A stretch of DNA of 64,000 nucleotides. Source: Anaerolineales bacterium (GTDB lineage: Bacteria; Chloroflexota; Anaerolineae; Anaerolineales; UBA11579). Below, in pieces: positions 35,809-47,533 of the stretch. Position 1 is the first letter of the stretch. Each line of letters starts with the position of its first letter. Both the position numbers and the translations under genes were made by a program. Location of the stretch: positions 646,174-710,173 of the forward strand of contig JAJTXV010000001.1 of assembly GCA_021463845.1 (NCBI GenBank), in the 5' to 3' direction. The notes beneath the pieces were generated by a model, which was not told the origin of the DNA, searched no databases, and saw nothing but the letters and a program-made list of their open reading frames with translations.

Positions 35809-36558
35809 TTACCCGCCGAGCAGGCTGCCGATCACATCGCCGGCCACGCCGCCGCTCTTCTTGCCGCCGGAGCGCTTGGCCCCCGCCAGGATGCGGTCGG
35901 CCAGGCGCGAGAGCGGCAGGCTCTGCAAATACACCTTGCCCGGCCCGGTCAGCTGGGCCAGGAACAGGCCCTCGCCGGCGAACAGCGCATTGGTGAAGCC
36001 CTTCATCATCTTGATGTCGTAATCCACGCTGGGCGCAAAGGCCACCAGGCAGCCGGTATCCACCCGCAGGGTTTCGCCGGGGGCCAGGGTCTTCTCGATC
36101 AGCGTGCCGCCGGCGTGCACCCAGGCCATGCCGCTGCCTTCCAGGCGCTGCAGGATGAAGCCTTCGCCGCCGAAGAGGCCCGCACCCAGCCGCCTGGTGA
36201 AAGCGATCTCGATCTCGACGCTGGTGTCCGCACACAGGAACGAATCCTTCTGGCAGATGAACTTGCCGCCCTCGGCGGTCAGGTTGATGGGCAGGATGCT
36301 GCCCGGGTACGGCGCAGCAAAGGCCACATGCGAGACGGCCTGGCTGGTATTGCTAAAGGTTGAGATGAAAAAGCTCTCGCCGGTGAACATACGCTTCAGG
36401 CCCTTGAAGATGCCGCCGACACCGGTCTGCATCTCGACGCCGCTCTCCATGAAGGTCATGGTGCCGGCTTCGCCGCGCACCGCCTCGCCGGGGTCAAGCT
36501 CGATCTCGAGCAGCTGCAGGTCATCACCGTGGATCTTGTACGTAATCTCGTTTGGCAT
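35809..36558 (-). CDS. AIM24/TIGR00266 family protein (DUF124)
   Basis: 249 aa. Y.I.G...Q.L.I.L.PGE.V..E.G.M..M..GV and F..Q..G.G..W..A.G are characteristic. There is a Gly/Lys-rich C-terminus. Confidence 0.75.
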   Translation of the reverse strand: MPNEITYKIHGDDLQLLEIELDPGEAVRGEAGTMTFMESGVEMQTGVGGIFKGLKRMFTGESFFISTFSNTSQAVSHVAFAAPYPGSILPINLTAEGGKFICQKDSFLCADTSVEIEIAFTRRLGAGLFGGEGFILQRLEGSGMAWVHAGGTLIEKTLAPGETLRVDTGCLVAFAPSVDYDIKMMKGFTNALFAGEGLFLAQLTGPGKVYLQSLPLSRLADRILAGAKRSGGKKSGGVAGDVIGSLLGG

Positions 36559-36746: not shown

Positions 36747-37073
36747 ATGGAGAAAATACTCTCACGAACAGAAGAGACCCTGCTGCTGGCGGTGTGGGCG
36801 CTGGCGCCGAACGCCTACGGCCTGGCGATCGGCGAGCACTTACGCAAGCTGACCGGCAAACGCTGGTCCGTCGGCGCGATCTACATCCCGCTGGAGCGCC
36901 TGGAGGCGCGCGGCCTGTTGGCGGCGCATGAAGGCGAGCCGACCCCGCAGCGCGGCGGGCGCAGCAAGCGCTTCTTCACGCTGACCCCGCAGGGGCTGAA
37001 GGCGCTCAACGAGGCCCGGCGGCTGCACGAAGCGCTGTGGGCCGCGGTGCCTGATGAGGGAGGGCTGGCTTGA
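36747..37073 (+). CDS. PadR family transcriptional regulator
   Basis: 108 aa. The winged-HTH pattern is LLLAVW......YGLAI..HL.....K.WS...GAIY..L.RLE.RGLL. Confidence 0.82.
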   Translation: MEKILSRTEETLLLAVWALAPNAYGLAIGEHLRKLTGKRWSVGAIYIPLERLEARGLLAAHEGEPTPQRGGRSKRFFTLTPQGLKALNEARRLHEALWAAVPDEGGLA

Positions 37074-37720
37074 TGCACAACACCATCCAGCCGCCCGCCC
37101 AGGCCACCCGCCTGCTGCGCAGCGTGTTGCCACAGCCGAGCGCCGAAGCCATTCTGGGCGACCTGCACGAAGCCTTCGTGCAGGCGGCCCACGAAGACGG
37201 CTTGCTGGCGGCCCGCATCTGGTATTGGAAAGAAGCGCTGCTGGCGCTGCCTGGCTTCGCCCTGCTGGCATTGCAAAACACGCACACTCGGAGGCAACTT
37301 GTGAACGGAAACATGGTTAGCGAAAACTGGTTTGGCAAGAACAATGGCCGCACGGCGGCCATCACGGGGATGCTGCTGCTGGTACCCGCCCTGCTAGTTG
37401 AAGGCTTTGCAGTGGCCTACGTACTGTCTGGCCGGCCGATGGCGGCGGTGATGAACACGCCGGGCCTCTCGCACCTGATGGCGGCCATGGAGAGCGGCTA
37501 TCTGAACATCGCCGGCGCCGAGCTGCCGATCGGCATTCTGGTGCTGGCGGGCATCCTGCTGGCGGCCATCATCAACTTCTTCGCCGTGGTGCAGGTCAAG
37601 CTGGAAACGGTGGAGGACGGCTACCAGGCCACGCTGACCGCTCGCCGCAAGCTGTGGAACCTGCTGCTATTGGCGCTGGTCGCAGTGCTGCTGCTGGGCA
37701 TGGACTGGCTCATCAGCTAG
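37073..37720 (+). CDS. PadR-associated membrane protein
   Basis: About 215 aa. The N-terminal cytoplasmic segment (ILGDLHEAF....R.WYWKEAL) resembles the prefix domain found next to PadR genes, and it is followed by 3-4 TM helices. TGATG overlap with padR. Confidence 0.6.
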   Translation: MHNTIQPPAQATRLLRSVLPQPSAEAILGDLHEAFVQAAHEDGLLAARIWYWKEALLALPGFALLALQNTHTRRQLVNGNMVSENWFGKNNGRTAAITGMLLLVPALLVEGFAVAYVLSGRPMAAVMNTPGLSHLMAAMESGYLNIAGAELPIGILVLAGILLAAIINFFAVVQVKLETVEDGYQATLTARRKLWNLLLLALVAVLLLGMDWLIS

Positions 37721-37810
37721 CCACCTAAGTAATCCAAAGCCTCAGGCATATGCCTGGGGCTTTTTTATTTGCCCTAAAATCGGCTAAACTTGCATTCTAG
37801 GAGCGCACAC

Positions 37811-38164
37811 ATGAAATCAATCGCGAAAATTGCATCCTGGATCCTGATCTTCTTTGGCGTGCTCTTCATCTGGGCTGCGTTTGGCACCCAGACCAGTTGG
37901 GGCAACCTGGCCACCGGCCTGATCACCGTGGGCCTGGGCTTTGGCCTGATGTGGTACGCCAACCAAAAGCTGGCCGCCCCCGGCGAACAAAAGGTGACCT
38001 ACAACGTGGACCTGACCGGCGATGTGAAGCTGGAGAAGTTCCTGTGCCAGCAGTGCGGCGGCGCCCTGAGCGACAAGAACGTGGCCCTAGTGGGCGGCGC
38101 GCTCAACGTCACCTGCCCCTACTGCGGCGCGGTCTACCAGATCGAAGAAGCCCCCAAGTGGTAA
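37811..38164 (+). CDS. Small membrane protein with C-terminal zinc ribbon
   Basis: 117 aa from MKSIAK, with AGGAG 9 nt upstream. Two TM helices are followed by CQQCGG...17...CPYCG. Confidence 0.6.
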   Translation: MKSIAKIASWILIFFGVLFIWAAFGTQTSWGNLATGLITVGLGFGLMWYANQKLAAPGEQKVTYNVDLTGDVKLEKFLCQQCGGALSDKNVALVGGALNVTCPYCGAVYQIEEAPKW

Positions 38165-38231: not shown

Positions 38232-39920
38232 ATGAAACTACGACACCGCATTCTCTCTCTTATTCTGTTGCTGCTGGTCGTGTGCGTGCCGCTCAGCGTG
38301 GCCTATGCACAGACCTATGCCTTCCAGGTGCCAACCCAGCGCGTAGATGTGTACTGGGAGCCCAACGGCACCCTGAGCGTCACCTACGAGATCACCTTTC
38401 GCAATGAGAGCTACGCGGACCCGATCGATTATGTAGACGTGGGTCTGCCCAACAATAGCTATTCGGTCTCCAACGTCAGCGCATCCATTGACGGCCGCCC
38501 CATCACCCACATTGCCTACTCGCCCTACATTGATGTTGGCGTGGAACTGGGGTTGGGCGCGTATGCGATCCAGCCCGGCCAGACCGGCACGGTGCGCATG
38601 ACCGCCACCAACGTCAGCAACGTGCTGTATGAGGATAACGAGGACAGCAGCTATGCCAGCGCGCTGTTCATGCCCAACTATTTTGACTCGGACTTTGTCA
38701 ACGGCAGCAGCGACATCACGGTGGTGTTCCACTTGCCGCCGGGCGTACAGCCCAGCGAGCCGCGCTGGCACACCGCCGGCCACCCTGGCTTCCCCGATAC
38801 ACCTGTCACCGGCGTGGATAACTCCGGCCGCATCACCTACACCTGGCGCAACACCAGTGCCAACGCCGGCGAAGACTATTTGTTCGGCGCCTCGTTCCCG
38901 GCCCGCTATGTCGCCAGCGGCAGTGTGACCGTGCCCACTTTCTGGCAGCGCTACGGCATCGATCCTGACGTGGTCATCGGCCTCCTGGTGTGCCTGTGCT
39001 TCGCCGGCTTCTTTGCTTTCATCGTGATCATCGCAGTGAGGGCTGAGCGCAGCCGCAAGCTCAAGTATTTACCGCCCAAGATCTCGGTCGAAGGGCACGG
39101 CATCAAGCGCGGCCTGACCGCGCCGGAAGCCGCCATCCTGCTTGAACAGCCGATGGACAAGATCCTCTCAATGATCATGTTCTCGGTGGTGAAAAAGGGC
39201 GCGGCGGAAGTGGTGACCCGTGACCCGCTGGATGTGGCGCGCGTCACCAAACAGCCAACCGGCTTGAAGGAATACGAGAACGACTTCCTGAACGCGTTCG
39301 CCGAAAGCGACAAAGCCAAGCGCCGGCGCGAGCTGCAGCAGATGATGGTGCGTATGGTGCGCGGCGTGGCCAACAAGATGCGCGGCTTCAGCAAGCGCGA
39401 GACGGTTGAGTTCTACAAGAAGATCACCGCTGATGCCTGGGCCGAAGTGGAAGCCGCGGATACGCCCAAGGTGAAGAGCGAAGCGTTCGACGAGAACCTG
39501 GAATGGACCATGCTGGATCCGAACTACGACCGCCGCACGCGGGATGTGTTCTCAGATGGGCCGGTGTATCTGCCGCGCTGGTATGGCGGCTACAACCCGG
39601 CCTACAACACAGCGGGCAAGACCTCATCCGCCCCCAGCGTGGGCCGCAGCAGCGGCAGCCCCACCCGCAGCACCGGCAGCCCCTCGCTGCCCACCCTGCC
39701 CGGCGGCGACTTCGCCGCCTCGGTGGTGGGCGGCGTGCAGAGCTTTGCCAGCAGCGTGGTGGGCAACCTGTCTGACTTCACCGGCGGCGTGACCAAGGTC
39801 ACCAACCCGCCGCCCCCGCCCTCTACCAGCAGCGGCGGTGGCGGCTTCAGCGGCGGCGGCTCGTCGTGTGCGTGTGCATGCGCAGGCTGCGCCTGCGCAT
39901 GCGCCGGAGGAGGCCGCTAA
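38232..39920 (+). CDS. DUF2207-like single-pass membrane protein with Ser/Gly-rich C-terminus ending in a Cys-Ala repeat (CACACAGCACACAGGGR)
   Basis: 562 aa. It has a signal peptide and an extracytoplasmic domain (Y.F.V....VDV...NG.L.V.YEI.F.N), one TM, and a cytoplasmic domain with the GIKRGLTAPEAAILLE motif. The low-complexity tail is PPPPPSTSSGGGGFSGGGSSCACACAGCACACAGGGR. The cytoplasmic domain is paralogous to 41700-42701. Confidence 0.75.
   Translation: MKLRHRILSLILLLLVVCVPLSVAYAQTYAFQVPTQRVDVYWEPNGTLSVTYEITFRNESYADPIDYVDVGLPNNSYSVSNVSASIDGRPITHIAYSPYIDVGVELGLGAYAIQPGQTGTVRMTATNVSNVLYEDNEDSSYASALFMPNYFDSDFVNGSSDITVVFHLPPGVQPSEPRWHTAGHPGFPDTPVTGVDNSGRITYTWRNTSANAGEDYLFGASFPARYVASGSVTVPTFWQRYGIDPDVVIGLLVCLCFAGFFAFIVIIAVRAERSRKLKYLPPKISVEGHGIKRGLTAPEAAILLEQPMDKILSMIMFSVVKKGAAEVVTRDPLDVARVTKQPTGLKEYENDFLNAFAESDKAKRRRELQQMMVRMVRGVANKMRGFSKRETVEFYKKITADAWAEVEAADTPKVKSEAFDENLEWTMLDPNYDRRTRDVFSDGPVYLPRWYGGYNPAYNTAGKTSSAPSVGRSSGSPTRSTGSPSLPTLPGGDFAASVVGGVQSFASSVVGNLSDFTGGVTKVTNPPPPPSTSSGGGGFSGGGSSCACACAGCACACAGGGR
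39876..39902 (+). other. Perfect 12-bp hairpin inside the Cys-Ala codons, just upstream of the next gene's SD
   Basis: GCATGCGCAGGC-TGC-GCCTGCGCATGC, followed by GGAGGAGG (39906-39913) and ATG 39920. Confidence 0.7.
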
Positions 39921-41083
39921 TGGGCTTTCTGGACAAACTGCGCGGCGGCGAGAAGGCTCAGCCGCTGGAACCCGGGCTGTTCTCCTACACCTCGCCGGCC
40001 AGCCACCCCAACCACTACCGTTTGCACTTGCGGGTTGAGCCGGGCGGCGAAGGCCTGCTGGTCATCAACGCCAGCACGGTATTGCACCTCAACCAAACCG
40101 CCACAGAGATGGCTTGGCACTTCATCCGCCTGACGCCGCCTGAGCAAGTGGCCGAGCAGGTATCCAAGCGCTATAGCACCAACAAGAAGCAGGCGGCCGA
40201 CGATTACGCCGAATTTGCCAAGACGATCCAGACCCTGATCGAAACGCCCGACCTGGACCCGGTGACGTATCTGGATGTCGACCGCGCCACACCCTATGAG
40301 GACCTGAGCGCGCCGTACCGGCTGGATATTGCACTGACCTACCGCCTGCCGGAGGGCGCCCCTGCCGAGGCGGCGCCCAGCAAGCGCGTTGAGCGCGAGC
40401 TGAGCACGGACGAGTGGAAGCAGGTGATCGACAAGGCCTACAACGCCGGCATCCCGCACATCACCTTCACGGGCGGCGAGCCGACCCTGCGCGAAGACCT
40501 GGCCGAGCTGCTGCAGCACGCCGAAGCCCGCGGCCTGGTAACCGGCCTGGTGACCGACGGCCACAAGCTCACCGACACGCGCTACCTCAAGACCCTGCTA
40601 GACGCGGGTCTGGACCATGCCATGATCGTGCTGCAGCCCAGCGGCACGCAGACCTGGGACTCGCTGGCCAGCTTTGCCTATTGGCGTGAAGTGCTGAACG
40701 ATGACATCTTCATCGCTGCCCACCTGACGCTGACCAAGGACAACGCCAGCCAGGCCAATGCGCTGATCGACAAGCTGTCGGGCAGCGGCATCCGCGCCCT
40801 CTCGCTGAGCGAAGCGGACACCTCGCTGCACGAGGCGCTGCAGGCCGCCCGCGACCATGCCGGCGCGCTGAACTTGCCGCTGGTGTGGGACCTGCCCGTG
40901 CCGTATTCGGCGCTCAATCCGGTCAGCTTGGAGCTGGCAGCCGCCCACGGCCAGGATACTCCGCAGGGGGCAGGCAAGGCCTGGCTCTACGTAGAGCCGG
41001 ATGGCGACGTGCTGCCCGGCCAGGGCGGCAAGAAGGTGCTAGGCAATTTTGTGCGCGATGAGTGGAGTGGGATTTGGAGGTAG
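39920..41083 (+). CDS. Radical-SAM-like pseudoenzyme (no CxxxCxxC, no SPASM cysteines) with N-terminal PqqD/RRE-like domain
   Basis: 387 aa. Collinear with 42876-44510, but APYRLDIALTYRLPEGAP replaces APYKVDIALTYGCNNECPHCYN, and LYVEPDGDVLPGQ replaces LCIEPNGNVLPCQ. The GGE-type motif ITFTGGEPTL is retained. The ATG overlaps the upstream TAA (TAATG). Confidence 0.75.
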   Translation: MGFLDKLRGGEKAQPLEPGLFSYTSPASHPNHYRLHLRVEPGGEGLLVINASTVLHLNQTATEMAWHFIRLTPPEQVAEQVSKRYSTNKKQAADDYAEFAKTIQTLIETPDLDPVTYLDVDRATPYEDLSAPYRLDIALTYRLPEGAPAEAAPSKRVERELSTDEWKQVIDKAYNAGIPHITFTGGEPTLREDLAELLQHAEARGLVTGLVTDGHKLTDTRYLKTLLDAGLDHAMIVLQPSGTQTWDSLASFAYWREVLNDDIFIAAHLTLTKDNASQANALIDKLSGSGIRALSLSEADTSLHEALQAARDHAGALNLPLVWDLPVPYSALNPVSLELAAAHGQDTPQGAGKAWLYVEPDGDVLPGQGGKKVLGNFVRDEWSGIWR

Positions 41084-41123
41084 TAGCGTAACAACTGCTG
41101 GCCAGTTACGCTAAAATTATCCC

Positions 41124-41378
41124 ATGAGCGCAGAGCGAAATTTCTCTTTTCGAGTAGTGATCGAGCCGGATGACCCGGAAGGGTTTCATGGATTCGTGCC
41201 ATTGCTACCCGGCGTTCACACTGTGGGGGATACTGTCGAACAGACTAAGCAAAATCTGCGCGAGGCAATTTTGGTTCATGTAGAAGGCCTTCTGAAGGAT
41301 GGCGAAGAAATCCCTCAAGAAGGCAAGGTGCTCGAGTTGGTTGAGACCTTTTCCAGCAAGGATTTTTCCTCAAGCTAG
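41124..41378 (+). CDS. hicB: HicB family antitoxin (short form, no DNA-binding domain)
   Basis: 84 aa. The F.V.IE.D...GF...VP.LPG..T.G.T.E....N..EAI..H.E pattern is typical of HicB/UPF0150. Confidence 0.8.
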   Translation: MSAERNFSFRVVIEPDDPEGFHGFVPLLPGVHTVGDTVEQTKQNLREAILVHVEGLLKDGEEIPQEGKVLELVETFSSKDFSSS

Positions 41379-41609
41379 ATGCCAAAGCTGCCTGTTGTAA
41401 AAGCGAGGGAACTATTGAACGCGCTTCAAAGAATGGGCTTTGTTGTCCATCACCAGCGCGGCAGCCATATTCAACTCAAGCATGCGGATGGCAGACGCGT
41501 CACTGTTCCCATGCATGCAGGTACAGACATACGCAGAGGCACGCTGCGAGCAATCATCAGAGACATCGGGCTTAGTGTCGACGAATTTTTGGAACTACTG
41601 AACCGCTAA
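41379..41609 (+). CDS. hicA: HicA family mRNA-interferase toxin
   Basis: 76 aa. K.RELL.AL...GF......GSH.QLKH..GRR.TVP.H.G.DI..GTL..I..D.GLS..EF. It starts immediately after the hicB stop (TAGATG). Confidence 0.85.
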   Translation: MPKLPVVKARELLNALQRMGFVVHHQRGSHIQLKHADGRRVTVPMHAGTDIRRGTLRAIIRDIGLSVDEFLELLNR

Positions 41610-41699: not shown

Positions 41700-42701
41700 T
41701 CACCCGTAAAACGTAGTTCTACGAATATCGCTTAGCAGCGCGGCGGTCACTGCATCGCTCTCATCCCCCAAGTCGAGCTTGACGTCGCCTTCGTCTACTA
41801 TGCCGTCGAGCTCGGTGTAGACAGCCTGCACCCAGCGGGCGAAGGTGTGGCCGCCGAGGTGCACCGGCTGCTTGCGCAGCCATTGCGGCACATAGGAATA
41901 GTCCGGCTGGTCGAGCACGCTGACGAAGTCGGCGCCCAGCAGTACCCAGCCTAGGTTGCGGTTGAATATCCGCTCACGGTCGAAGGTCAGCTTGCCGTCG
42001 CTGCGGGCTTCCTTGGGGGCGCGGTCAATGATGAGGTCGTAGTAGGTGCGGGTTTCGTCGAGGCTGTAGCCCCCCGCCCGCCCGGCCACATAGCGCACCA
42101 GCGGCTGCACCGCCACGCCTAGGTCAAGCTGGCGCACGGGAACTCCAGGATGGGTCTCGATGATCTCAAGGAACGGCTCTTCAAAGGCGTGGAGGGCCGC
42201 ATTGATGGCCTGGGCGGCCAGGCGGCGGCGCTCGCCGCGCTGCTGGACGGTCAGCGCGAGACCATGCGTGCGGAAGGCTTCCTCGACTTCGACAGTGAAC
42301 GGCTCGCCGTGCGTCTGGCGCAGGATGCCTTTACGCAACAGCTCGAACAGCAGCAGAGTCAGCGTGATGTTGATCGGCCGGCCAAGCAGCACAGCCGCCT
42401 CGGGCGGCGTGAGGCCGCGCTTGACGCCGCCGCCCTCGATGCGGGCTACGGCGGGCTGGTAGCCCGCCGCCCGTGCCCGGCGCCAGGCAGCCCAACCCAG
42501 CAGGCCCAGCAACGGCACGAAGGCCAGCAGCTGCGCCAGCGGCCAAACGGCGAACAGCGCCAGCAGCCCGGCGGCTAGGGCGGCAAAGAGCAGCCGGCCC
42601 TGTCCGCGGGCCAGCTGCAAGAACAATAGCCACAGCAACGCCGTGAACACGGCGGCTGTGGCTATGCGCAGGATAGCGTTGGCTTCAAGGGCGGCGAGCA
42701 T
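41700..42701 (-). CDS. Membrane protein paralogous to the cytoplasmic domain of the DUF2207-like protein (no Cys tail)
   Basis: 333 aa. Three N-terminal TM helices precede ARIEGGGVKRGLTPPEAAVLLGRP (compare ISVEGHGIKRGLTAPEAAILLEQP). Further collinear matches: GYSLDETRTYY vs GFSKRETVEFY, RNLGWVLL vs ENLEWTML, YVPQWL vs YLPRWY. Confidence 0.7.
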   Translation of the reverse strand: MLAALEANAILRIATAAVFTALLWLLFLQLARGQGRLLFAALAAGLLALFAVWPLAQLLAFVPLLGLLGWAAWRRARAAGYQPAVARIEGGGVKRGLTPPEAAVLLGRPINITLTLLLFELLRKGILRQTHGEPFTVEVEEAFRTHGLALTVQQRGERRRLAAQAINAALHAFEEPFLEIIETHPGVPVRQLDLGVAVQPLVRYVAGRAGGYSLDETRTYYDLIIDRAPKEARSDGKLTFDRERIFNRNLGWVLLGADFVSVLDQPDYSYVPQWLRKQPVHLGGHTFARWVQAVYTELDGIVDEGDVKLDLGDESDAVTAALLSDIRRTTFYG

Positions 42702-42875: not shown

Positions 42876-44510
42876 TTATTGCCCGCTCATTACACCGATC
42901 TCGTCCAGCCCGATCATGTCAAAGTTGCCGCTGGCGCGGGTCTTGGTGCGGGTCGTGCTGGGCGACGGCGTGAAGCCGCCAGCAGGAATATACCCAGCGG
43001 TGTGCGAGTGCCCCTTCACCTGATGGGCTGAGTTGCCAGTGCCGCAGCTGCCGCTGCAGCCCGAGCAGCCGCCCCCGCTGCCCTCGGCCACACGCACACC
43101 GTCACGCGCTTCGCGTTCGATGCGGCAGCCGCCGCCGCACAGCGGCAGGTCCGGGCAGGTCCAGCATTTTTCGGGCAGGCCGTAACCCTTGGGGTCCAGC
43201 TCGCGGTAGCGGAAGCTGCGGAACAGCTCGCCATCCCAGATCTTTTCCCATGGGTCGTGCAGGATGTTGCCGGCCGACACGTAGTACGACTGGCACGGCA
43301 GCACGTTGCCGTTGGGCTCGATGCACAGCGAATACTCGCCGGCGTTGCAGCGCTTGGCGCCAATCTCAAGCTCAACCGGCGACATGCGGCAATACTCAGT
43401 GGGCGTGTACCACAGGAAGCGCATGCCAAGCTCGCGGGCCTTGTCACGCACGCGCACCAGCAAGGCCGGCATCTCTTTCTCGTCAATGGCGTTGGAGTGC
43501 GCAAAACCACCGCCGGAGTAGATGAGGCCATTCATAGCGAAGGTGCGGATGCCGAGCGAATACAGGAACTCAATGATCTCCTCGACATGGCCCATGTTGG
43601 CGCGCATCAGGGTGGTGTTGGTGATCACATGCACCCGGCTGGCGATGGCATTCTCGATACCTTGCACGGTCTGGTGCCAGGCCTTGGCGCCCATCATGGC
43701 GTTGTGTACATCCGGGCGGTTGGAATCGAGCGTGAACTGCACATGGTTCAAGCCGGCCTCAGCCAGCTCTTGCATGTACTCATTGTGGGCAATGTGGCGG
43801 CCGTTGGTGTTGAGGCCGACGACCATGCCGAGCTGATCGGCATAGCGAATGACCTGCGGCAGGTCCGGGTGCAGAGTGGCTTCACCGCCAGTGAGGATCA
43901 GGTGCGGCACGCCCAGCTCGGCCAGGCGGTCGAGCACCGCGTACCATTCATTCAGCGGCAGCGAGGGCATGTTGAGGCGGTCGGCCTCGTTATAGCAGTG
44001 CGGGCACTCGTTGTTGCAGCCATAAGTCAGGGCGATGTCGACTTTGTACGGCGCGTTGACTTCCACGCTGAACATAGGCGACATTTCCAGCGTATCGCTC
44101 AGCTCGCAGGTCGGGCAGTCACCGTCCGGGTGGGCAAAGCCCTCGACCATGTCGTAGATCTGGGTCAGCTCGCGCTCGATCTGGGCCAGCGGCGCCTCAG
44201 GGTGCCAGCCGCCGATGCGGGCGCGAGCTTGCGCCCGCGGCACGCCGTCGAGGGCCATCTTGGCCATCAGGGCGGCGGTGTGGTTGAGGTGGACCACATC
44301 GGTCACATCCACGAACATCACGCCGTTGCCGCTGGGCTCGATGCGTAAGTGAATACGCATGCTGCGCCCATTGGCCATTGCGATGTCATAGGTATGCAAA
44401 CCGGTGCGGGGTTTTTCGGGCTGGGAAAAGGCCGCCAGGAAATTGGCCGTGTCGCTGCGCACTCCCTGCCACAATTTATTGACGGAAGCAGAACGGATAT
44501 CGAGGGCCAT
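42876..44510 (-). CDS. Radical SAM/SPASM enzyme with N-terminal PqqD/RRE-like domain and Cys/Ser/Gly-rich C-terminal extension
   Basis: 544 aa. CNNECPHC is the CxxxCxxC motif and LILTGGEATL is the GGE motif. The SPASM motifs are C..8..CIEPNGNVLPC and CWTCPDLPLCGGGC. The N-terminal ~130 aa resemble PqqD/RRE domains (VVHLNHTAALMAKMAL...). About 85 aa extend beyond SPASM and contain GSGGGCSGCSGSCGTG. Confidence 0.85.
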   Translation of the reverse strand: MALDIRSASVNKLWQGVRSDTANFLAAFSQPEKPRTGLHTYDIAMANGRSMRIHLRIEPSGNGVMFVDVTDVVHLNHTAALMAKMALDGVPRAQARARIGGWHPEAPLAQIERELTQIYDMVEGFAHPDGDCPTCELSDTLEMSPMFSVEVNAPYKVDIALTYGCNNECPHCYNEADRLNMPSLPLNEWYAVLDRLAELGVPHLILTGGEATLHPDLPQVIRYADQLGMVVGLNTNGRHIAHNEYMQELAEAGLNHVQFTLDSNRPDVHNAMMGAKAWHQTVQGIENAIASRVHVITNTTLMRANMGHVEEIIEFLYSLGIRTFAMNGLIYSGGGFAHSNAIDEKEMPALLVRVRDKARELGMRFLWYTPTEYCRMSPVELEIGAKRCNAGEYSLCIEPNGNVLPCQSYYVSAGNILHDPWEKIWDGELFRSFRYRELDPKGYGLPEKCWTCPDLPLCGGGCRIEREARDGVRVAEGSGGGCSGCSGSCGTGNSAHQVKGHSHTAGYIPAGGFTPSPSTTRTKTRASGNFDMIGLDEIGVMSGQ

Positions 44511-44586: not shown

Positions 44587-45318
44587 ATGCAACCTGCCCT
44601 CGCACACCAGCGCTATACCCAGCAAGCCGCCTGGACCGCCCCAGCCCGCCGCCACCTGCTGGCGGCGGCCGGGCTGCCGAATGCGCGCCGCATACTGGAG
44701 GTGGGCTGCGGCACAGGCGCCATCCTGCGCGGCGTAGCCATGCCGCCGGGCGGCCGTCTGCATGCGCTGGACATAGACCGCGCCGCCCTCACGCTGGCCC
44801 GCCAGCACGCGCCGCAGGCGCACCTGGCGGCGGGCGACGCGCATACCCTGCCCTACCCTCACGCCAGCTTTGACATTGCCTATTGTCATTTTGTGCTGCT
44901 ATGGCTGGCAGACCCAGAACGCGGTCTGGCTGAGATGCGCCGCGTGGTGCGGCCCGGCGGCGCGGTGCTGGCATTGGCCGAGCCGGACTACAGCCAGCGC
45001 AGCGACGAGCCAGCCGAACTGGCCGCGCTGGGGCATGCGCAGACCGAAGCCCTGCGCGCCCGCGGCGCTGACCCCGCTGCGGGCGGCCAACTGCCTGCGT
45101 TGTTTGCGGCGGCCGGGCTGCACATCGTCGACGCCGGGCCGCTGCAAGTCAGCAGCCCGGCCGCAGAAGGCGAAGCCAGCACGCTGCGCGTCGACCTGAG
45201 CGGGCATGTGCCCGCCGAGCAGCTGGAGCGATGGCTAGCGCAGGACGCTGCGGCCTGGGCAGCGGGCACGCGCAGGCTACATGTGCCCACCTACTACGCC
45301 TTCGGGCGGGTGCGGTAG
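44587..45318 (+). CDS. Class I SAM-dependent methyltransferase
   Basis: 243 aa. Motif I is ILEVGCGTGAILRG, followed by the post-I region and FDIAYCHFVLLWLADPERGLAEMRRVVRPGGAVL. Confidence 0.85.
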   Translation: MQPALAHQRYTQQAAWTAPARRHLLAAAGLPNARRILEVGCGTGAILRGVAMPPGGRLHALDIDRAALTLARQHAPQAHLAAGDAHTLPYPHASFDIAYCHFVLLWLADPERGLAEMRRVVRPGGAVLALAEPDYSQRSDEPAELAALGHAQTEALRARGADPAAGGQLPALFAAAGLHIVDAGPLQVSSPAAEGEASTLRVDLSGHVPAEQLERWLAQDAAAWAAGTRRLHVPTYYAFGRVR

Positions 45319-45369: not shown

Positions 45370-46023
45370 ATGTTCAAAGACAGCCGCAACATTCTTGGAA
45401 TCGTACTTATCCTGGCCGGAGCCTTTCTGGCGCTCGAGCAGTTTGACCTGATCCCTGGCTCAGCGCGGGATGGATTCTTCGGCGTGCTGTTGGCCATCGC
45501 CGCGATCGCGCTGCTCTCGCTGTTCCTGGCCGACCGCAGCCGCTGGTGGGCCGTGATGGTGGGCTGCTTCGTTTCCGGCCTGGCCCTCATAAGCCTGCTG
45601 GGCACCTTCCTGCCGGAAGTGAGCGAAACCCTCGGTGGGCCGATCTTCCTGGGCTTTATGGGCTTGGGCTTCCTTTCGGTATTCACTTTGAATCGCGAAA
45701 TGTGGTGGGCGCTGATCCCTGGCGGAGTGATGTTCTCGCTGGCTGCGGTCGCTTATTTTGAAAGCCTGCCGGGCAACCTGCCTTTTGATCCTGCTGGCCT
45801 GCTCTTCATTGGCCTGGGCCTCACCTTCATTGTGCTATCAACGGTCAAAGTCGGCAATCTTCGCCTTGGCTGGGGCGTGTACCCCGGCATCCCGCTGCTG
45901 CTGTTCGGCCTTATGCTGGCGCTGGGCTCGGAAGCGCTGTGGTCCTATATCGGCCCGCTGATGCTGATCGCGGGCGGTGCGTGGCTGCTATACAGCTCTC
46001 TGCGAAACAAAAGCGGCGCCTAG
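45370..46023 (+). CDS. Integral membrane protein with internal duplication
   Basis: 217 aa and about 8 hydrophobic segments. Repeated half-motifs are DRSRWWAVMVG and NREMWWALIPG. GGAGG lies upstream. Confidence 0.6.
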   Translation: MFKDSRNILGIVLILAGAFLALEQFDLIPGSARDGFFGVLLAIAAIALLSLFLADRSRWWAVMVGCFVSGLALISLLGTFLPEVSETLGGPIFLGFMGLGFLSVFTLNREMWWALIPGGVMFSLAAVAYFESLPGNLPFDPAGLLFIGLGLTFIVLSTVKVGNLRLGWGVYPGIPLLLFGLMLALGSEALWSYIGPLMLIAGGAWLLYSSLRNKSGA

Positions 46024-46054: not shown

Positions 46055-46834
46055 TTAATCGATTGACTCTGCAATGCGCACGAGCTCGCGCAGTGGCAGA
46101 TTGGCCTCGATGCGATAGGTCAGCTCACCCATCTGCCAGATCAAAGCCGGAGCCTGTACTAAAACGCCTCTGTATGTTTCGTTGTGCGTACTCAGGAAAT
46201 GGTCGCCAATCACTAGCGCACCCAAACTGTCGTGCACCCATAGCCGTTCCACCACCTCAGGCTCATCCTTATGCAAGCGCACGCTCGGGCCTAAGATGTA
46301 GAGTGCCGTCTCAACCTTATCGGCATTCTCGTCGTCCAGCCACACCAGGATCACGTAACGCGCATCCACTTCGCCCTGCAAGTAGACTTTGTCCGGTTCA
46401 CCCAACCCTGCAGGGTAACGAGGCAGCGTGATCTCAAAGCCGGCTTGCTGGCGCACTTGTGCCAGCGTCAGCGCGCCGCTCAAATCAGCCAGCGGCACGA
46501 TCTCGCCATATTGCCCAAGCGCTTTGGCCAGGGGTTTCGTTGTGCTCAATTTGGAAACTCCCTCCGCCGGGAGGTTGATGTGCACGCCGCCCACCTGCAG
46601 CGCGGCCAGCACACGGGCGCGCACATCCGGCACGGCCAGCAGGCTGGCCGCCAGCGCCAGCACGGCTGCGGCGGCCCAGGCCAGCCGCGGCAGTGGGTGC
46701 GTGCGGCGCAATGCCGCACGCGGTGCGGGCTGTGGCGAAATTTGCGCTGCAATATCCGGCGTAGCTGGATATTGCAAGCCGCGCCCGGCCTGCTGCAGTG
46801 AAACTTCCAGATGAGCCAGCCTGCGGTCATCCAT
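46055..46834 (-). CDS. Anti-sigma factor-like single-pass membrane protein
   Basis: 259 aa. A short cytoplasmic N-terminus precedes one TM (LAWAAAAVLALAASLLAV) and an extracytoplasmic domain. It overlaps the stop of the upstream ECF sigma gene by 8 nt. Confidence 0.6.
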   Translation of the reverse strand: MDDRRLAHLEVSLQQAGRGLQYPATPDIAAQISPQPAPRAALRRTHPLPRLAWAAAAVLALAASLLAVPDVRARVLAALQVGGVHINLPAEGVSKLSTTKPLAKALGQYGEIVPLADLSGALTLAQVRQQAGFEITLPRYPAGLGEPDKVYLQGEVDARYVILVWLDDENADKVETALYILGPSVRLHKDEPEVVERLWVHDSLGALVIGDHFLSTHNETYRGVLVQAPALIWQMGELTYRIEANLPLRELVRIAESID

Positions 46835-47411
46835 GGCGGTCCTCCTCCAACTGCGGAAACTCTGAACGAATGATCTCGTGCAATTTTTGCAGAGCTCGGT
46901 GCGTCTGCGACTTCACTGTGCCGGTGGCCTGGCCCAGCGCCTCGGCAGTCTCCTCCACCGAAAGCTGCATGAAGTAACGCAGATAGATCACGCTCTGCAG
47001 GCGGGCCGGCAGTGTGCGCACCGCGCTCCATAGCTCATGGGCCTGCTGCGCGGCTTCGCTGCCGGCCTGCGGTCCCTCGGCCGCTTGCGGCTGCTGGCGG
47101 GCTGCCCGCTGCAGCGCGGCCCAATAGCGGCTGGCGCTACGCTGGCGGTTGCGCGCCAGGTTGGATACGATGCGCAGTAGCCAAGGCCGCAGCGGCCGCT
47201 GGGCGTCAAAGCGGCCGAGGTGCTTGTAGGCGCGCACGAAGCAATCCTGCGCGGCGTCCTGAGCCTCGGCCGCATCGCCCAGGTGCAAATACGCCAGGCG
47301 GAACACAGCCTCCTGGTGCAGGCGCACGAGTTCGGCCCAGGCGGCCTGGTCACCGCGGCGGGCTAGGGCTACGACGTTGGCTTCATCCAAACATTGCCTC
47401 GAGGCGGTCAT
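46827..47411 (-). CDS. ECF-type RNA polymerase sigma-70 family factor
   Basis: Region 2 (AF..L...H...V.RLAY..LGD..EAQDAAQD.FVRAY) and region 4 (VIYLRYF..LSVEETAEALG...GTVKSQ.HRAL.KL). The start is set at MTASRQ. Confidence 0.85.
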   Translation of the reverse strand: MTASRQCLDEANVVALARRGDQAAWAELVRLHQEAVFRLAYLHLGDAAEAQDAAQDCFVRAYKHLGRFDAQRPLRPWLLRIVSNLARNRQRSASRYWAALQRAARQQPQAAEGPQAGSEAAQQAHELWSAVRTLPARLQSVIYLRYFMQLSVEETAEALGQATGTVKSQTHRALQKLHEIIRSEFPQLEEDRHG

Positions 47412-47533
47412 GAAGACCGCTAGCACTGATACTACCCCGCTGCCCTCGTGCAGGTTCCCATCCCGGCACTTTGCTATATAATTCAACTAATTACGAACTT
47501 CACAAAAGTTCTATCACTACCCAAGGAGCTCCA

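Follow-up and report, generated by a model that had tools for sequence, protein, structure and literature searches.

In the window (the whole 64,000-nucleotide stretch of Anaerolineales DNA that was analysed), the membrane protein gene T is followed by PSI, a homologue of radical SAM peptide maturases that has lost every cysteine and that, judged from its substitution pattern, is a functional gene under strong purifying selection. On the evidence of gene order, the partner to which PSI is linked most tightly is T and not the enzyme. The best-supported reading is that PSI acts by non-catalytic binding or scaffolding, a reading in which our confidence is about evenly balanced by doubt. The genes concerned form a cassette consisting of Z, T, an intact radical SAM/SPASM enzyme (R), PSI and a methyltransferase (MT), and in the window they lie, together with the membrane protein gene M, as follows:

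37790 to 38164, plus strand: Z, which opens the cassette and encodes a small membrane protein whose C-terminus carries a CxxC...CPYC zinc ribbon (open reading frame; weak zinc-ribbon Pfam matches)
38232 to 39920, plus strand: T, a bitopic membrane protein of 562 amino acids (open reading frame; AF2 model)
39920 to 41083, plus strand: PSI, a cysteine-free RRE/radical-SAM-barrel/truncated-SPASM paralogue of 387 amino acids (open reading frame; homology; AF2 model; dN/dS)
41700 to 42701, minus strand: M, a membrane protein of 333 amino acids, paralogue of the T cytoplasmic domain (BLASTP)
42876 to 44510, minus strand: R1, an intact RRE/radical SAM/SPASM enzyme (Pfam Radical_SAM, 97.8 bits; SPASM, 44.4 bits)
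44587 to 45318, plus strand: MT, a class-I SAM-dependent methyltransferase (Pfam Methyltransf_11 at 6e-23)

The PSI reading frame runs from an ATG at 39920 to a stop ending at 41083, and none of its 387 residues is a cysteine. The preliminary description held that PSI aligns end to end with R1 and has lost all of the Fe-S ligands, and both statements were borne out. BLASTP aligned the two proteins over the whole length of PSI (E=1e-49, 27% identity), placing PSI residues 13-386 on R1 residues 29-425, so that the match stops within the R1 SPASM domain, at its first half. The cluster-binding segment of R1, LTYGCNNECPHCYN, lies opposite LTYRLPEGAPAEAAP in PSI, and the SPASM/twitch segment LCIEPNGNVLPCQ lies opposite LYVEPDGDVLPGQ, as had been described. 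PSI also ends (...GIWR) before the CxxCx5Cx3C motif, which in R1 is C449-x2-C452-x5-C458-x3-C462. The segments of PSI discussed below are:

39962 to 40243, plus strand: RRE (PqqD-like) domain, approximately residues 15-108 (Pfam PqqD; AF2 model; conserved residues)
40334 to 40390, plus strand: former radical-SAM cluster loop, ALTYRLPEGAPAEAAPSKRV in place of ALTYGCNNECPHCYN (alignments)
40472 to 40480, plus strand: retained GGE motif inside FTGGEPTL (alignment A1; G185, G186 and E187 invariant)
40967 to 41080, plus strand: remnant of the SPASM/twitch first half (AGKAWLYVEPDGDVLPGQ...GNFVRDEWSGIW), without cysteines and truncated before CxxCx5Cx3C (alignments)

R1 carries the CX3CX2C cysteines, which in this superfamily supply three ligands to the SAM-binding [4Fe-4S] cluster, and eight more in its SPASM region (alignment A4), a region in which seven or eight cysteines hold one or two auxiliary [4Fe-4S] clusters, as well as a clade-specific C-terminal extension, GGGCSGCSG. 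Opposite its C165, C169 and C172, PSI has L, A and E; of the SPASM cysteines, C374, C388, C396 and C406 have given way to other residues, and the truncation has removed C449, C452, C458 and C462. The same holds across the family: when 62 intact enzymes and 68 PSI proteins were aligned, all 12 cysteine columns conserved in the enzymes were substituted or deleted in the PSI proteins, whereas 45 other columns, the GGE and RRE residues included, were identical in both groups. The CX3CX2C motif is missing from 68/68 PSI orthologues, and the sole match among the PSI homologues, in P0061, falls in a mis-called N-terminal extension and is not genuine. Among the 120 closest homologues, 117 have between zero and two cysteines. 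Because it has no cysteines, PSI almost certainly cannot bind an iron-sulfur cluster of its own and, lacking cluster ligands, it is predicted not to cleave SAM reductively to the 5'-deoxyadenosyl radical. The former cluster loop has acquired a family-wide consensus of its own, LPxGAPxxAAPxKRV, and is modelled with a pLDDT below 50 at residues 141-155. What is left of the SPASM domain is a cysteine-free beta-hairpin (EPDGDVLPGQ...GN..W..IW); Pfam SPASM (PF13186) gave no match on PSI, compared with 44.4 bits on R1.

The loss of all catalytic cysteines together with a truncated C-terminus could fit a pseudogene in decay, or a broken radical SAM gene that annotation has mistaken for a real one. 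However, the frame is intact, and comparison with the two closest genomes gives dN/dS values of 0.083 and 0.125, to be set beside 0.07-0.09 for T, 0.023 for R1 and 0.02-0.03 for Z. Length and losses alike are unchanged in family members down to about 31% identity, and this architecture persists at deep divergence, and in a conserved operon position, in hundreds of homologues of 370-400 amino acids. Since dN/dS is 0.08-0.13 and the losses are shared down to about 31% identity, PSI is not decaying, and we regard the pseudogene explanation as refuted by the conservation data, with practically no chance of being correct.

In sequence identity, PSI is nearer to the operon-internal R2 type of intact enzyme (35%) and to a Heimdallarchaeal enzyme (33%, E=3e-74) than to R1 (27%), so R1 is not its closest active relative. 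All PSI proteins formed one clade in an NJ tree (distance-based, midpoint-rooted and without bootstrap), in which R1 and R2 were sister clades.

An RRE-like N-terminal domain had been claimed, and Pfam PqqD (PF05402) indeed matched residues 50-102 with 25.8 bits against a cut-off of 23.4; the AF2 model has strands at 19-24, 34-39, 45-49 and 53-57, followed by helices at 59-69, 74-85 and 89-108, and the HLR and LN residues of the RRE are conserved in PSI and the active enzymes alike. Pfam Radical_SAM (PF04055) matched with 44 bits (cut-off 29.5), the match being confined to positions 21-108 of the 166 in the profile. Confidence in the modelled barrel is good, and the whole model (pTM 0.71) aligned with SuiB, SkfB, PqqE, BlsE and MoaA; the top matches, SuiB, SkfB and PqqE, are RRE-bearing peptide maturases. 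The GGE motif, previously noted as a SAM contact and known in radical SAM enzymes to touch the amino group of SAM, lies within FTGGEPTL (residues 183-190) and is present in 68/68 orthologues; in PSI it is a candidate SAM-contact motif. T-[DN]-G in beta-3, AGLDH and further barrel residues are likewise identical in PSI and the active enzymes. Such strict retention of GGE and the SAM pocket would not be needed by a pure scaffold and hints at ligand binding. PSI might accordingly sense a ligand or regulate the maturase allosterically, with a working nucleoside/SAM pocket (for SAM, 5'-deoxyadenosine, SAH or methionine), or might catalyse a non-radical reaction on the tail of T, and the conserved pocket residues and well-modelled barrel speak for such a function. 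However, radical SAM enzymes anchor SAM through its methionine moiety to the cluster's unique iron, and this is missing from PSI; GGE is lost in the deep family members P0257, P0260, P0269, P0277, P0283 and P0291; and we could propose no catalytic residues in PSI. We therefore consider a sensory or non-radical catalytic role rather improbable.

The presumed object of this machinery is the C-terminus of T. T has a signal/transmembrane helix, a beta-sandwich ectodomain and a second transmembrane helix; the cytoplasmic domain follows, and after it come a conserved leader-like segment and the Cys-Ala tail. The ectodomain is ribophorin-I-like and the cytoplasmic domain winged-helix-like. T belongs to no Pfam or NCBIfam family, and its homologues are nameless or annotated as 'hypothetical protein'. 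An assignment to DUF2207 (PF09972) was rejected, the match spanning profile positions 6-164 of 172 at 10 bits (E=0.99) against a threshold of 24.4, and a DUF2207 search with four other T homologues gave no matches; we treat the resemblance in architecture as a lead only. Two segments of T are of particular concern here:

39690 to 39809, plus strand: leader-like segment, LPTLPGxDFAASVVxGVQxF...FTxGVTxxTNP (invariant columns P487 to P526 in alignments A2 and A6)
39864 to 39917, plus strand: cytoplasmic C-terminal tail, SCACACAGCACACAGGGR, the presumed core or substrate (homologue alignments A2 and A6)

T ends in ...CACACAGCACACAGGGR, and the ending ...CACACA(CA)GCACACAGGGR, with 6-7 closely spaced cysteines, recurs in 119 of the 120 best T homologues, is invariant in alignments A2 and A6 and is found again in a Heimdallarchaeaceae homologue. 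The leader-like segment stands just upstream of a PPPP linker and the tail, and is modelled as two helices (492-524, pLDDT 50-65); it may serve as a recognition sequence. In sequence, the cytoplasmic C-terminus of T resembles a RiPP precursor fused to a protein, with a leader-like segment, a proline linker and a core of the form (CA)3-4 G (CA)3 GGGR. The modelled topology places the tail in the cytoplasm. Among the archaeal relatives, those with the Cys tail on T also have an intact enzyme (L091 and L092), whereas tail-less T homologues go with Cys-poor pseudo-enzymes (L087, L088 and L089). Because the tail is invariant in 119/120 homologues, is modelled as cytoplasmic and in archaea accompanies the intact enzyme, we infer that it is the substrate of the radical SAM enzyme, which would install some modification on it.

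A further idea is that PSI is half of a split radical SAM enzyme: the tail would enter its barrel and supply the [4Fe-4S] ligands in trans, and SAM cleavage would be restored solely on docking of PSI to T. The SAM-pocket motifs are still there in PSI although its cysteines are gone, and the tail offers an invariant set of closely spaced cysteines, made together with PSI. However, the CxCxC spacing is unlike CX3CX2C, 58/62 loci already contain an intact enzyme, tail-less T homologues still pair with pseudo-rSAMs, and the loop of one PSI homologue is filled by a zinc-ribbon-like insert instead. To our knowledge, a split radical SAM enzyme with ligands in trans has no precedent, and we judge this possibility to be very slight.

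Production of PSI appears to be tied to that of T. The stop codon of T (TAA, 39918-39920) shares its final A with the PSI ATG (39920-39922), forming TAATG, and a putative Shine-Dalgarno sequence, GGAGGAGG, lies 7-14 nt upstream of this ATG, within the GGGR codons of T. The one-nucleotide overlap occurred in 11 of the 22 loci in which PSI directly follows T, far above chance. The translational coupling that had been claimed is thus supported at the sequence level. A cluster-less protein made stoichiometrically with T in the window, and bearing the same RRE signature as the enzyme, could in principle be a competitive decoy or timing regulator, its RRE shielding the bound leader or tail from the intact enzyme and so limiting or ordering the modification. 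Gene context alone cannot separate a decoy from a presenting subunit, but universal retention in a biosynthetic operon is more typical of a positive factor, and we think a decoy distinctly unlikely.

Two architectures were seen among the Anaerolineae. In 51 loci the order is Z-T-R2-PSI-MT on one strand, whereas the clade of the window has Z-T-PSI with a divergent R1-M pair; since T, R2, PSI and MT share one strand in most genomes, the layout of the window is the derived one. MT, which is divergent from R1 in the window and directly downstream of PSI in the common operon type, is found in most loci. Nearly every locus, the Heimdall locus L091 among them, has Z upstream of T; in the window the likely start of Z is the ATG at 37811, and a terminator-like hairpin (37736-37763) lies just upstream of the gene. 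M, downstream of R1, has neither ectodomain nor Cys tail (BLASTP of T residues 279-450 against M residues 81-274, E=1e-10), and it adjoins R1 in type-B loci, an arrangement that is conserved.

PSI was found downstream of T in 62/62 Anaerolineae loci with enough sequence, and an intact radical SAM/SPASM enzyme in 58/62. Three of the remaining loci (L014, L017 and L021) have T-PSI, and the roughly 9.9 kb that follow T contain no intact enzyme, although one could sit elsewhere in the genome; the fourth, L031, is too short to judge. These three loci count against a scaffold that serves the enzyme. The preliminary description saw in PSI a candidate pseudoenzyme partner, as would be expected of a non-catalytic substrate-presenting or scaffolding subunit. 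Its cluster-less nature, the purifying selection, its linkage to T in all 62 loci and the presence of an intact enzyme in 58 speak for a non-catalytic partner; on the other hand, R1 is not its closest active relative, and substrate presentation, like physical binding to T or to the enzyme, is a proposal.

The archaeal relatives bear on the same question from two sides. In the Heimdall and Bathyarchaeota versions, which have the tail and an intact enzyme, PSI was not found in the sequence examined, so PSI is probably accessory to the chemistry and not needed for it; as the chemistry would then proceed independently of PSI, this too weighs against a scaffolding role. The archaeal contigs L087, L088 and L089, conversely, couple tail-less T homologues to other Cys-poor pseudo-rSAMs, with no intact enzyme within 10 kb in L089; this is a small sample, in which two contigs of the three are short. 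These pseudo-rSAMs fell outside the PSI clade in the NJ tree, suggesting that cysteines were lost repeatedly while the pairing was kept. Tail-less pairs without a nearby intact enzyme suggest a role that concerns the membrane protein itself and not substrate presentation and, taken with the three enzyme-less Anaerolineae loci, mean that the conserved partner of PSI may be the cytoplasmic domain of T rather than the active enzyme.

PSI could, on this evidence, be mainly a constitutive cytoplasmic subunit of T-family proteins with a structural, regulatory or signalling function, exerted for example by docking on the winged-helix-like domain and independent of enzyme and tail chemistry. A radical-SAM-family partner would then always bind T-family proteins, catalysis being an add-on that can be lost. 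The T-PSI linkage (62/62) is tighter than that between PSI and R (58/62), the archaeal pseudo-rSAMs seem to have lost their cysteines independently, and the tail-less paralogue M of the window also has a radical-SAM-family partner, R1. However, PSI in Anaerolineae virtually always shares an operon with an intact enzyme, the tail and the methyltransferase, and its RRE residues are identical to those of R, fitting the binding of the same peptide segment; with archaeal examples so sparse, we regard the constitutive subunit as a serious but unlikely alternative.

For the preferred reading, that of a non-catalytic binding partner or scaffold, we propose the following course of events in a cassette that is built around T. 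In the lineage leading to the cassette-bearing Anaerolineae, the RRE/radical SAM/SPASM maturase gene would have been duplicated. One copy, PSI, has lost all ligands of the radical-SAM cluster and of both auxiliary clusters as well as the second half of SPASM, has kept the RRE, the barrel and the GGE motif, and is maintained by selection as a paralogue that would be catalytically dead. In the window, translational coupling would keep PSI synthesis in step with that of T. With its RRE and the cluster-less barrel cavity, PSI would then bind the cytoplasmic region of T, be it at the leader-like segment, at the tail or at the cytoplasmic domain. It would hold or present the Cys-Ala tail for modification by MT and by the intact radical SAM/SPASM enzyme, which is R1 in the window and R2 elsewhere, or shield the tail until then. 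More broadly, and with more reserve than for the scaffolding role itself, we suggest that Z-T-R-(PSI)-MT is an unrecognised cross-domain system of Anaerolineae, Heimdallarchaeaceae and Bathyarchaeota in which the radical SAM/SPASM enzyme modifies the Cys-Ala C-terminus of T, with PSI as an obligatory non-catalytic T-binding subunit in Anaerolineae; this is a possible picture to which we do not yet commit ourselves. If true, PSI would be the first functionally defined radical-SAM pseudoenzyme.

We compared PSI with known systems. Like PqqE, SuiB and SkfB, it begins with a PqqD-like RRE, continues with a partial TIM barrel and ends in a SPASM/twitch region (best matches: PqqE 6c8v, E=5e-19; SuiB 5v1s, E=1e-10; SkfB 6efn, TM 0.59), and the cassette as a whole recalls RiPP maturation in its leader-like segment, Cys-rich core, maturase and tailoring methyltransferase. 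Unlike these enzymes, PSI lacks the cluster cysteines and the second SPASM half, and in place of a small precursor peptide the presumed substrate is the C-terminal end of a bitopic membrane protein of 560 aa. PSI is not PqqE: TIGR02109 scored 84.5 against 381 bits, over residues 129-251 only, and no pqq genes lie nearby. Among the best 25 of 36 NCBIfam families for PSI, all were far below their cut-offs. One of the families rejected was TIGR04347 (pseudo-SAM/SPASM protein, Halobacteria), with 57.8 against a cut-off of 525 bits over residues 151-239 only; this match reflects generic homology, because intact R1 scores higher (100.4). TIGR04150, the pseudo-rSAM protein of the GG-Bacteroidales system, was outside these best 25, with the presence of its model in the scanned release unconfirmed. 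PSI shares with both families the state of a conserved radical-SAM homologue without CX3CX2C. The GG-Bacteroidales pseudo-rSAM adjoins an intact rSAM/SPASM enzyme and a peptide precursor, the same pairing of active and pseudo forms as in PSI. A SPASM domain is retained in both families, but in PSI all of the SPASM cysteines are gone, and taxa and substrates differ.

The proposed job of PSI, that of a non-catalytic leader binder delivering the core to the enzyme, is also that of stand-alone or fused RRE proteins (PqqD; the lasso and thiopeptide RREs). These are domains of 90 aa, whereas PSI is a full-length enzyme relic with RRE and barrel, and it would be the second RRE of the cassette because the intact enzyme already has its own. 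In non-canonical radical SAM heteromers of the Dph1-Dph2 type, two paralogous subunits are combined, one of them dispensable for the cluster chemistry, which resembles a catalytic subunit with a paralogue of reduced or absent competence. Their fold is unrelated to the classical radical SAM barrel, however, Dph2 still binds a cluster, and a PSI-enzyme heterodimer is hypothetical.

We found no curated family (NCBIfam or Pfam) and, in the literature searched, no paper covering the PSI system, nor any on the function of pseudo-rSAM families, TIGR04347 and TIGR04150 included; the PSI system is a new variant within pseudo-rSAM, RiPP-like maturation. Radical SAM enzymes are one of the largest enzyme superfamilies, and their cluster-less paralogues have so far been noticed merely as names of database families. 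The PSI family is an unusually clean test case, with 0-2 cysteines, strong purifying selection, unfailing linkage to T and an active paralogue in the same operon. Its function would reveal how a dead radical SAM barrel with an RRE is used, be it for leader or tail binding, chaperoning or regulation. Because the likely substrate tail is obvious, invariant and short, it could be followed by mass spectrometry, and solving the cassette would reveal what is done chemically to a (CA)n tail shared in identical form by Chloroflexota and Asgard archaea and explain why a bitopic protein with a ribophorin-I-like ectodomain needs such a tail. PSI genes are at present labelled "radical SAM protein" or "organic radical activating enzyme", names that are misleading for a protein of this kind.

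The cysteine-free radical-SAM paralogue PSI is encoded by an intact open reading frame of 387 codons, and no cysteine was counted in its product. The genes of the cassette to which it belongs are arranged in the window as follows.

37790-38164, upstream of T: Z, a small membrane protein with a zinc ribbon
38232-39920, + strand, upstream of PSI: T, a bitopic membrane protein of 562 aa with a Cys-Ala tail
39920-41083, + strand: PSI
41124-41609, + strand, between PSI and M: a HicB/HicA pair (HicB-like antitoxin, 84 aa; HicA toxin, 76 aa)
41700-42701, opposite strand, after R1: M, a membrane protein and paralogue of the T cytoplasmic domain (E=1e-10)
42876-44510, - strand: R1, an intact radical SAM/SPASM enzyme of 544 aa
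44587-45318, divergent from R1: MT, a class-I methyltransferase

The HicB/HicA pair seems to be an insertion in the intergenic space of the cassette, and a promoter-like site was noted near it (41088-41117).

BLASTP aligned PSI residues 13-386 with R1 residues 29-425 (27% identity, E=1e-49), in keeping with the end-to-end relationship proposed earlier for the two proteins. In the aligned sequences, ALTYGCNNECPHCYN of R1 is replaced by ALTYRLPEGAPAEAAP in PSI, YCRMSP by YSALNP and LCIEPNGNVLPCQ by LYVEPDGDVLPGQ, and the PSI C-terminus (...GIWR) falls short of R1's CWTCPDLPLCGGGC. The Pfam Radical_SAM profile scored 44 bits with PSI, where only the portion of the profile past the cluster loop was matched, and 97.8 bits with R1; the SPASM profile had no match in PSI and scored 44.4 bits with R1, and the PqqD profile matched PSI at 25.8 bits (cut-off 23.4). 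None of the three clusters carried by its relatives has a cysteine ligand in PSI, and PSI retains the RRE, the barrel and the GGE motif, the last found in 68/68 PSI proteins. In addition, the T stop codon TAA (39918-39920) and the PSI ATG share one base, and the Shine-Dalgarno sequence GGAGGAGG for PSI sits inside the final codons of T. The alignments, the Pfam scores and this overlap confirmed the preliminary description in every detail, including the replaced cluster and SPASM/twitch segments, the end before the SPASM CxxCx5Cx3C motif, the retention of the RRE-like N-terminal domain and GGE, and, at the sequence level, translational coupling to T.

When 5.8 billion proteins were searched, the best 120 matches to PSI were 55-97% identical and nearly all 370-430 aa long, and the named ones among them were mostly from Anaerolineales or Chloroflexota. 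These close homologues contained 0-2 cysteines in 117 of 120 cases, and the sole CX3CX2C match lay inside a mis-called N-terminal extension. When representatives clustered at 50% identity were searched exhaustively, more distant members were added, down to about 31% identity, with the same length and no CX3CX2C. In an alignment of 68 PSI proteins with 62 intact enzymes of the same loci, all 12 enzyme-conserved cysteine columns (one lying upstream, three that ligate the radical-SAM cluster and eight within the SPASM region) were substituted or deleted in PSI, and the former cluster loop had a consensus of its own, LPxGAPxxAAPxKRV. A total of 45 columns were identically conserved in PSI and the intact enzymes, including the RRE residues HLR and LN, APY..D.A.TY, GGE, AGL.H and EP.G.V.P.Q...GN..W. 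The SAM-pocket residues retained in this way might give PSI a ligand-sensing role, which we consider one of the lesser alternatives. For the two closest genomes, the dN/dS of PSI was 0.083 and 0.125, similar to that of T (0.07-0.09) and more relaxed than that of R1 (0.023). PSI is under purifying selection, and a decaying pseudogene is excluded because dN/dS is low and the family is deep.

The CX3CX2C-like motifs of three PSI homologues (L017, L019 and P0061) were dismissed as artefacts of over-called ORF starts. Such starts run into tail-coding DNA in another frame (window 39866-39919, L017 5342, L019 5836 and P0061), and the false N-termini, for example MCVCMRRLRL or MCLCLCLC, are able to mimic CxxxCxxC. 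Another homologue, P0058 (431 aa), carries a zinc-ribbon-like insert, CPYC...CSNC, exactly at the former radical-SAM cluster loop (columns about 174-205 of the alignment of PSI homologues).

In an AlphaFold2 model of PSI (pTM 0.71), a beta-sheet and three helices form the N-terminal part, next to a barrel and, at the C-terminus, a small hairpin; confidence was low in the former cluster loop and the linkers. The closest PDB structures to the model were those of three peptide maturases that contain an RRE, SuiB, SkfB and PqqE, and the top sequence-profile match was also PqqE (E=5e-19). Structure prediction, suggested earlier as a check, is consistent with PSI keeping the RRE-like sheet and helices and the barrel. 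PSI descends from the RRE-rSAM-SPASM peptide maturases of the PqqE, SuiB and SkfB type and is predicted to work likewise; however, it differs from functional radical SAM/SPASM proteins, because the absence of CX3CX2C and of the SPASM cysteines deprives it of the defining features of both. Cluster-less radical-SAM homologues already exist as curated families, such as TIGR04347, of which PSI is no member (57.8 bits against a cut-off of 525; the intact R1 scores higher). TIGR04150, which adjoins an intact radical-SAM gene in Bacteroidales, is a second family of this kind. PSI, R1, T and M all fell below every NCBIfam cut-off, and T and M had no family in NCBIfam or in Pfam, even on a permissive rescan of the latter, the only hint being a sub-threshold one of DUF2207. 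Full-text literature searches found no report on the Z-T-R-PSI-MT cassette or on what pseudo-rSAM proteins do.

With T as the anchor and one genome per species scanned, 126 genomes were found and 80 loci were kept, with labels that nearly always read Anaerolineae or Chloroflexota. Gene context, analysed by script in 85 loci, showed two architectures. The common one (51/85) comprises Z, T, R2, PSI and MT on the same strand, R2 being an intact radical SAM/SPASM enzyme of about 450 aa; in the window's architecture (19/85), Z, T and PSI are accompanied by R1 and M on the opposite strand, with MT divergent from R1. Downstream sequence reached 3.2 kb or more in 62 loci; PSI lay downstream of T in all of them, and 58 contained an intact enzyme; three of the four exceptions had none in about 9.9 kb of downstream sequence, and the fourth is a short contig. 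A 1-nt overlap was found at 11 of 22 T-PSI junctions. PSI is genetically inseparable from T, with an intact paralogue and a methyltransferase nearly always alongside. Linkage to T that is tighter than linkage to the enzyme favours the main alternative, in which PSI would be primarily a constitutive partner of the membrane protein and independent of the chemistry; we assign this a fairly low probability.

Two further observations concern individual loci. In L014, L017, L021 and L030, T is followed by PSI, and an intact rSAM/SPASM enzyme is absent from the available sequence (up to 9.9 kb past T); MT is also present in L021 and L030, and an unrelated 455-aa ORF separates T from PSI in L021. The R2 of L056 was considered as a second pseudo-enzyme and rejected: it has a single C-to-W change at the first radical-SAM cysteine, with the other cysteines intact, which is probably a sequencing error (MAG, 3.5x coverage).

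In a neighbour-joining tree, one clade held all PSI proteins, with the window's type nested within the common type, and R1 and R2 formed sister clades separate from PSI. By this topology the window's layout is a derived variant of the five-gene operon, and R1 is an orthologue of R2 that was relocated and extended. PSI and R parted by a duplication older than the cassette's spread through the lineage. R1 was ruled out as the parent of PSI by this topology and by identity, PSI being 35% identical to R2-type enzymes compared with 27% to its neighbour R1. The proposal that PSI is a pseudoenzyme partner, with a substrate-presenting or scaffolding role, is unproven and is the best available reading; it requires amendment in that the most constant partner of PSI is the membrane protein T and that the gene order of the window is a derived one.

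The R1 clade has a C-terminal extension past SPASM with an invariant GGGCSGCSG (window 42876-43080, - strand; R1 residues about 477-544), which is absent from the operon-internal R2 enzymes. The extension is similar to the Gly/Cys-rich end of T; it might serve as an additional metal site or as a substrate in cis.

The model of T begins with a signal/TM helix and a confident beta-sandwich ectodomain (residues 31-223), followed by one TM helix (245-278), a cytoplasmic helix-helix-hairpin and helical bundle, a disordered linker, two helices in a conserved segment, a proline linker and a disordered tail. The segment bearing the two modelled helices is strongly conserved (LPTLPGxDFAASVV..FT..VT..TNP), and the tail, ...SSCACACAGCACACAGGGR, is identical save one extra CA unit in 119/120 homologues. 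PSI might instead be half of a split enzyme, with the T tail giving it cluster ligands in trans, or might serve as a decoy or timing factor; we rank both among the lesser alternatives. The T ectodomain (window 38310-38900, + strand) was modelled with pLDDT >90, and its best matches were ribophorin I/Ost1 of oligosaccharyltransferase and the N-terminal beta-sandwich of M1 aminopeptidases. Tandem T pairs, both with the Cys-Ala tail, occur in L031, L034, L045, L053, L056 and L065, and T proteins of about 770 aa with a duplicated ectodomain form a group (L090, 6316-8625).

Outside Anaerolineae, the Heimdallarchaeaceae locus L091 (3962-8611; GCA_054384195.1) contains Z, then T and an intact rSAM/SPASM enzyme, with a methyltransferase nearby. 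Its T matches the window's T over the full length (E=6e-55) and ends in GGGGGGCACACACACACAGGGR; the enzyme gene overlaps T by 1 nt, its product is 33% identical to PSI (E=3e-74), and no PSI was found within 6 kb on each side. In the Bathyarchaeota locus L092 (5524-7353; CP070636.1), a T-like C-terminus, ...SSCVCACAACACVCACVSCACACASGGVG, whose tail is a Cys-Val/Cys-Ala variant, is followed by an intact enzyme. The arrangement of Z, T and intact rSAM/SPASM without PSI is found in Asgard and Bathyarchaeota archaea, and the (CA)nGGGR tail is common to both domains. Contigs that look archaeal and have an L15e neighbour carry T homologues that lack the tail and match T over the ectodomain, TM and cytoplasmic domain (E=4e-18). 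Translational coupling links these homologues to other pseudo-rSAMs, which are poor in cysteine and 440-465 aa long.

L087, 5822-8460: tail-less T and pseudo-rSAM
L088, 86-3108: tail-less T and pseudo-rSAM
L089, 8715-11395: tail-less T and pseudo-rSAM

On one 31-kb contig of this kind, no intact enzyme was found within 10 kb. These three pseudo-rSAMs fall outside the PSI clade, suggesting that cluster ligands were lost repeatedly and that the membrane-protein pairing outlasted the losses. The coupled pairs show that rSAM-family proteins remain paired with T-family proteins even once catalysis is lost, and they speak for PSI as a constitutive partner. In the few non-Anaerolineae cases, the tail pairs with an intact enzyme and the lack of a tail with a pseudo-enzyme only, a pattern that supports the T tail as the radical-SAM substrate. 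PSI itself may be a non-catalytic subunit that binds the T cytoplasmic region and then holds, presents or protects the tail, a role to which we give about an even chance. Candidate targets on T are the leader-like segment at residues 487-526, the tail peptide at 540-562 and the folded cytoplasmic domain at 280-450, and the intact enzyme and the methyltransferase would modify the tail that PSI holds, presents or protects. The cassette system is clean, deeply conserved and common to both domains, and is uncharacterised in the databases and literature searched.

Envelope-stress-type genes flank the cassette (36747-37720, +; 45370-46023, +; 46055-47486, -), among them a PadR regulator with a 'permease prefix domain 2' protein and a LiaF-like membrane protein; the pair at 46055-47486 was judged by eye to be a candidate ECF sigma and anti-sigma factor. 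A strong terminator-like hairpin (37736-37763) lies between the PadR operon and Z. An AIM24-family gene (35809-36558, - strand) is located a few kb upstream of Z, as in many loci of the same clade (L002, L006, L007, L010, L011, L016 and L024), a proximity that probably reflects synteny rather than function.
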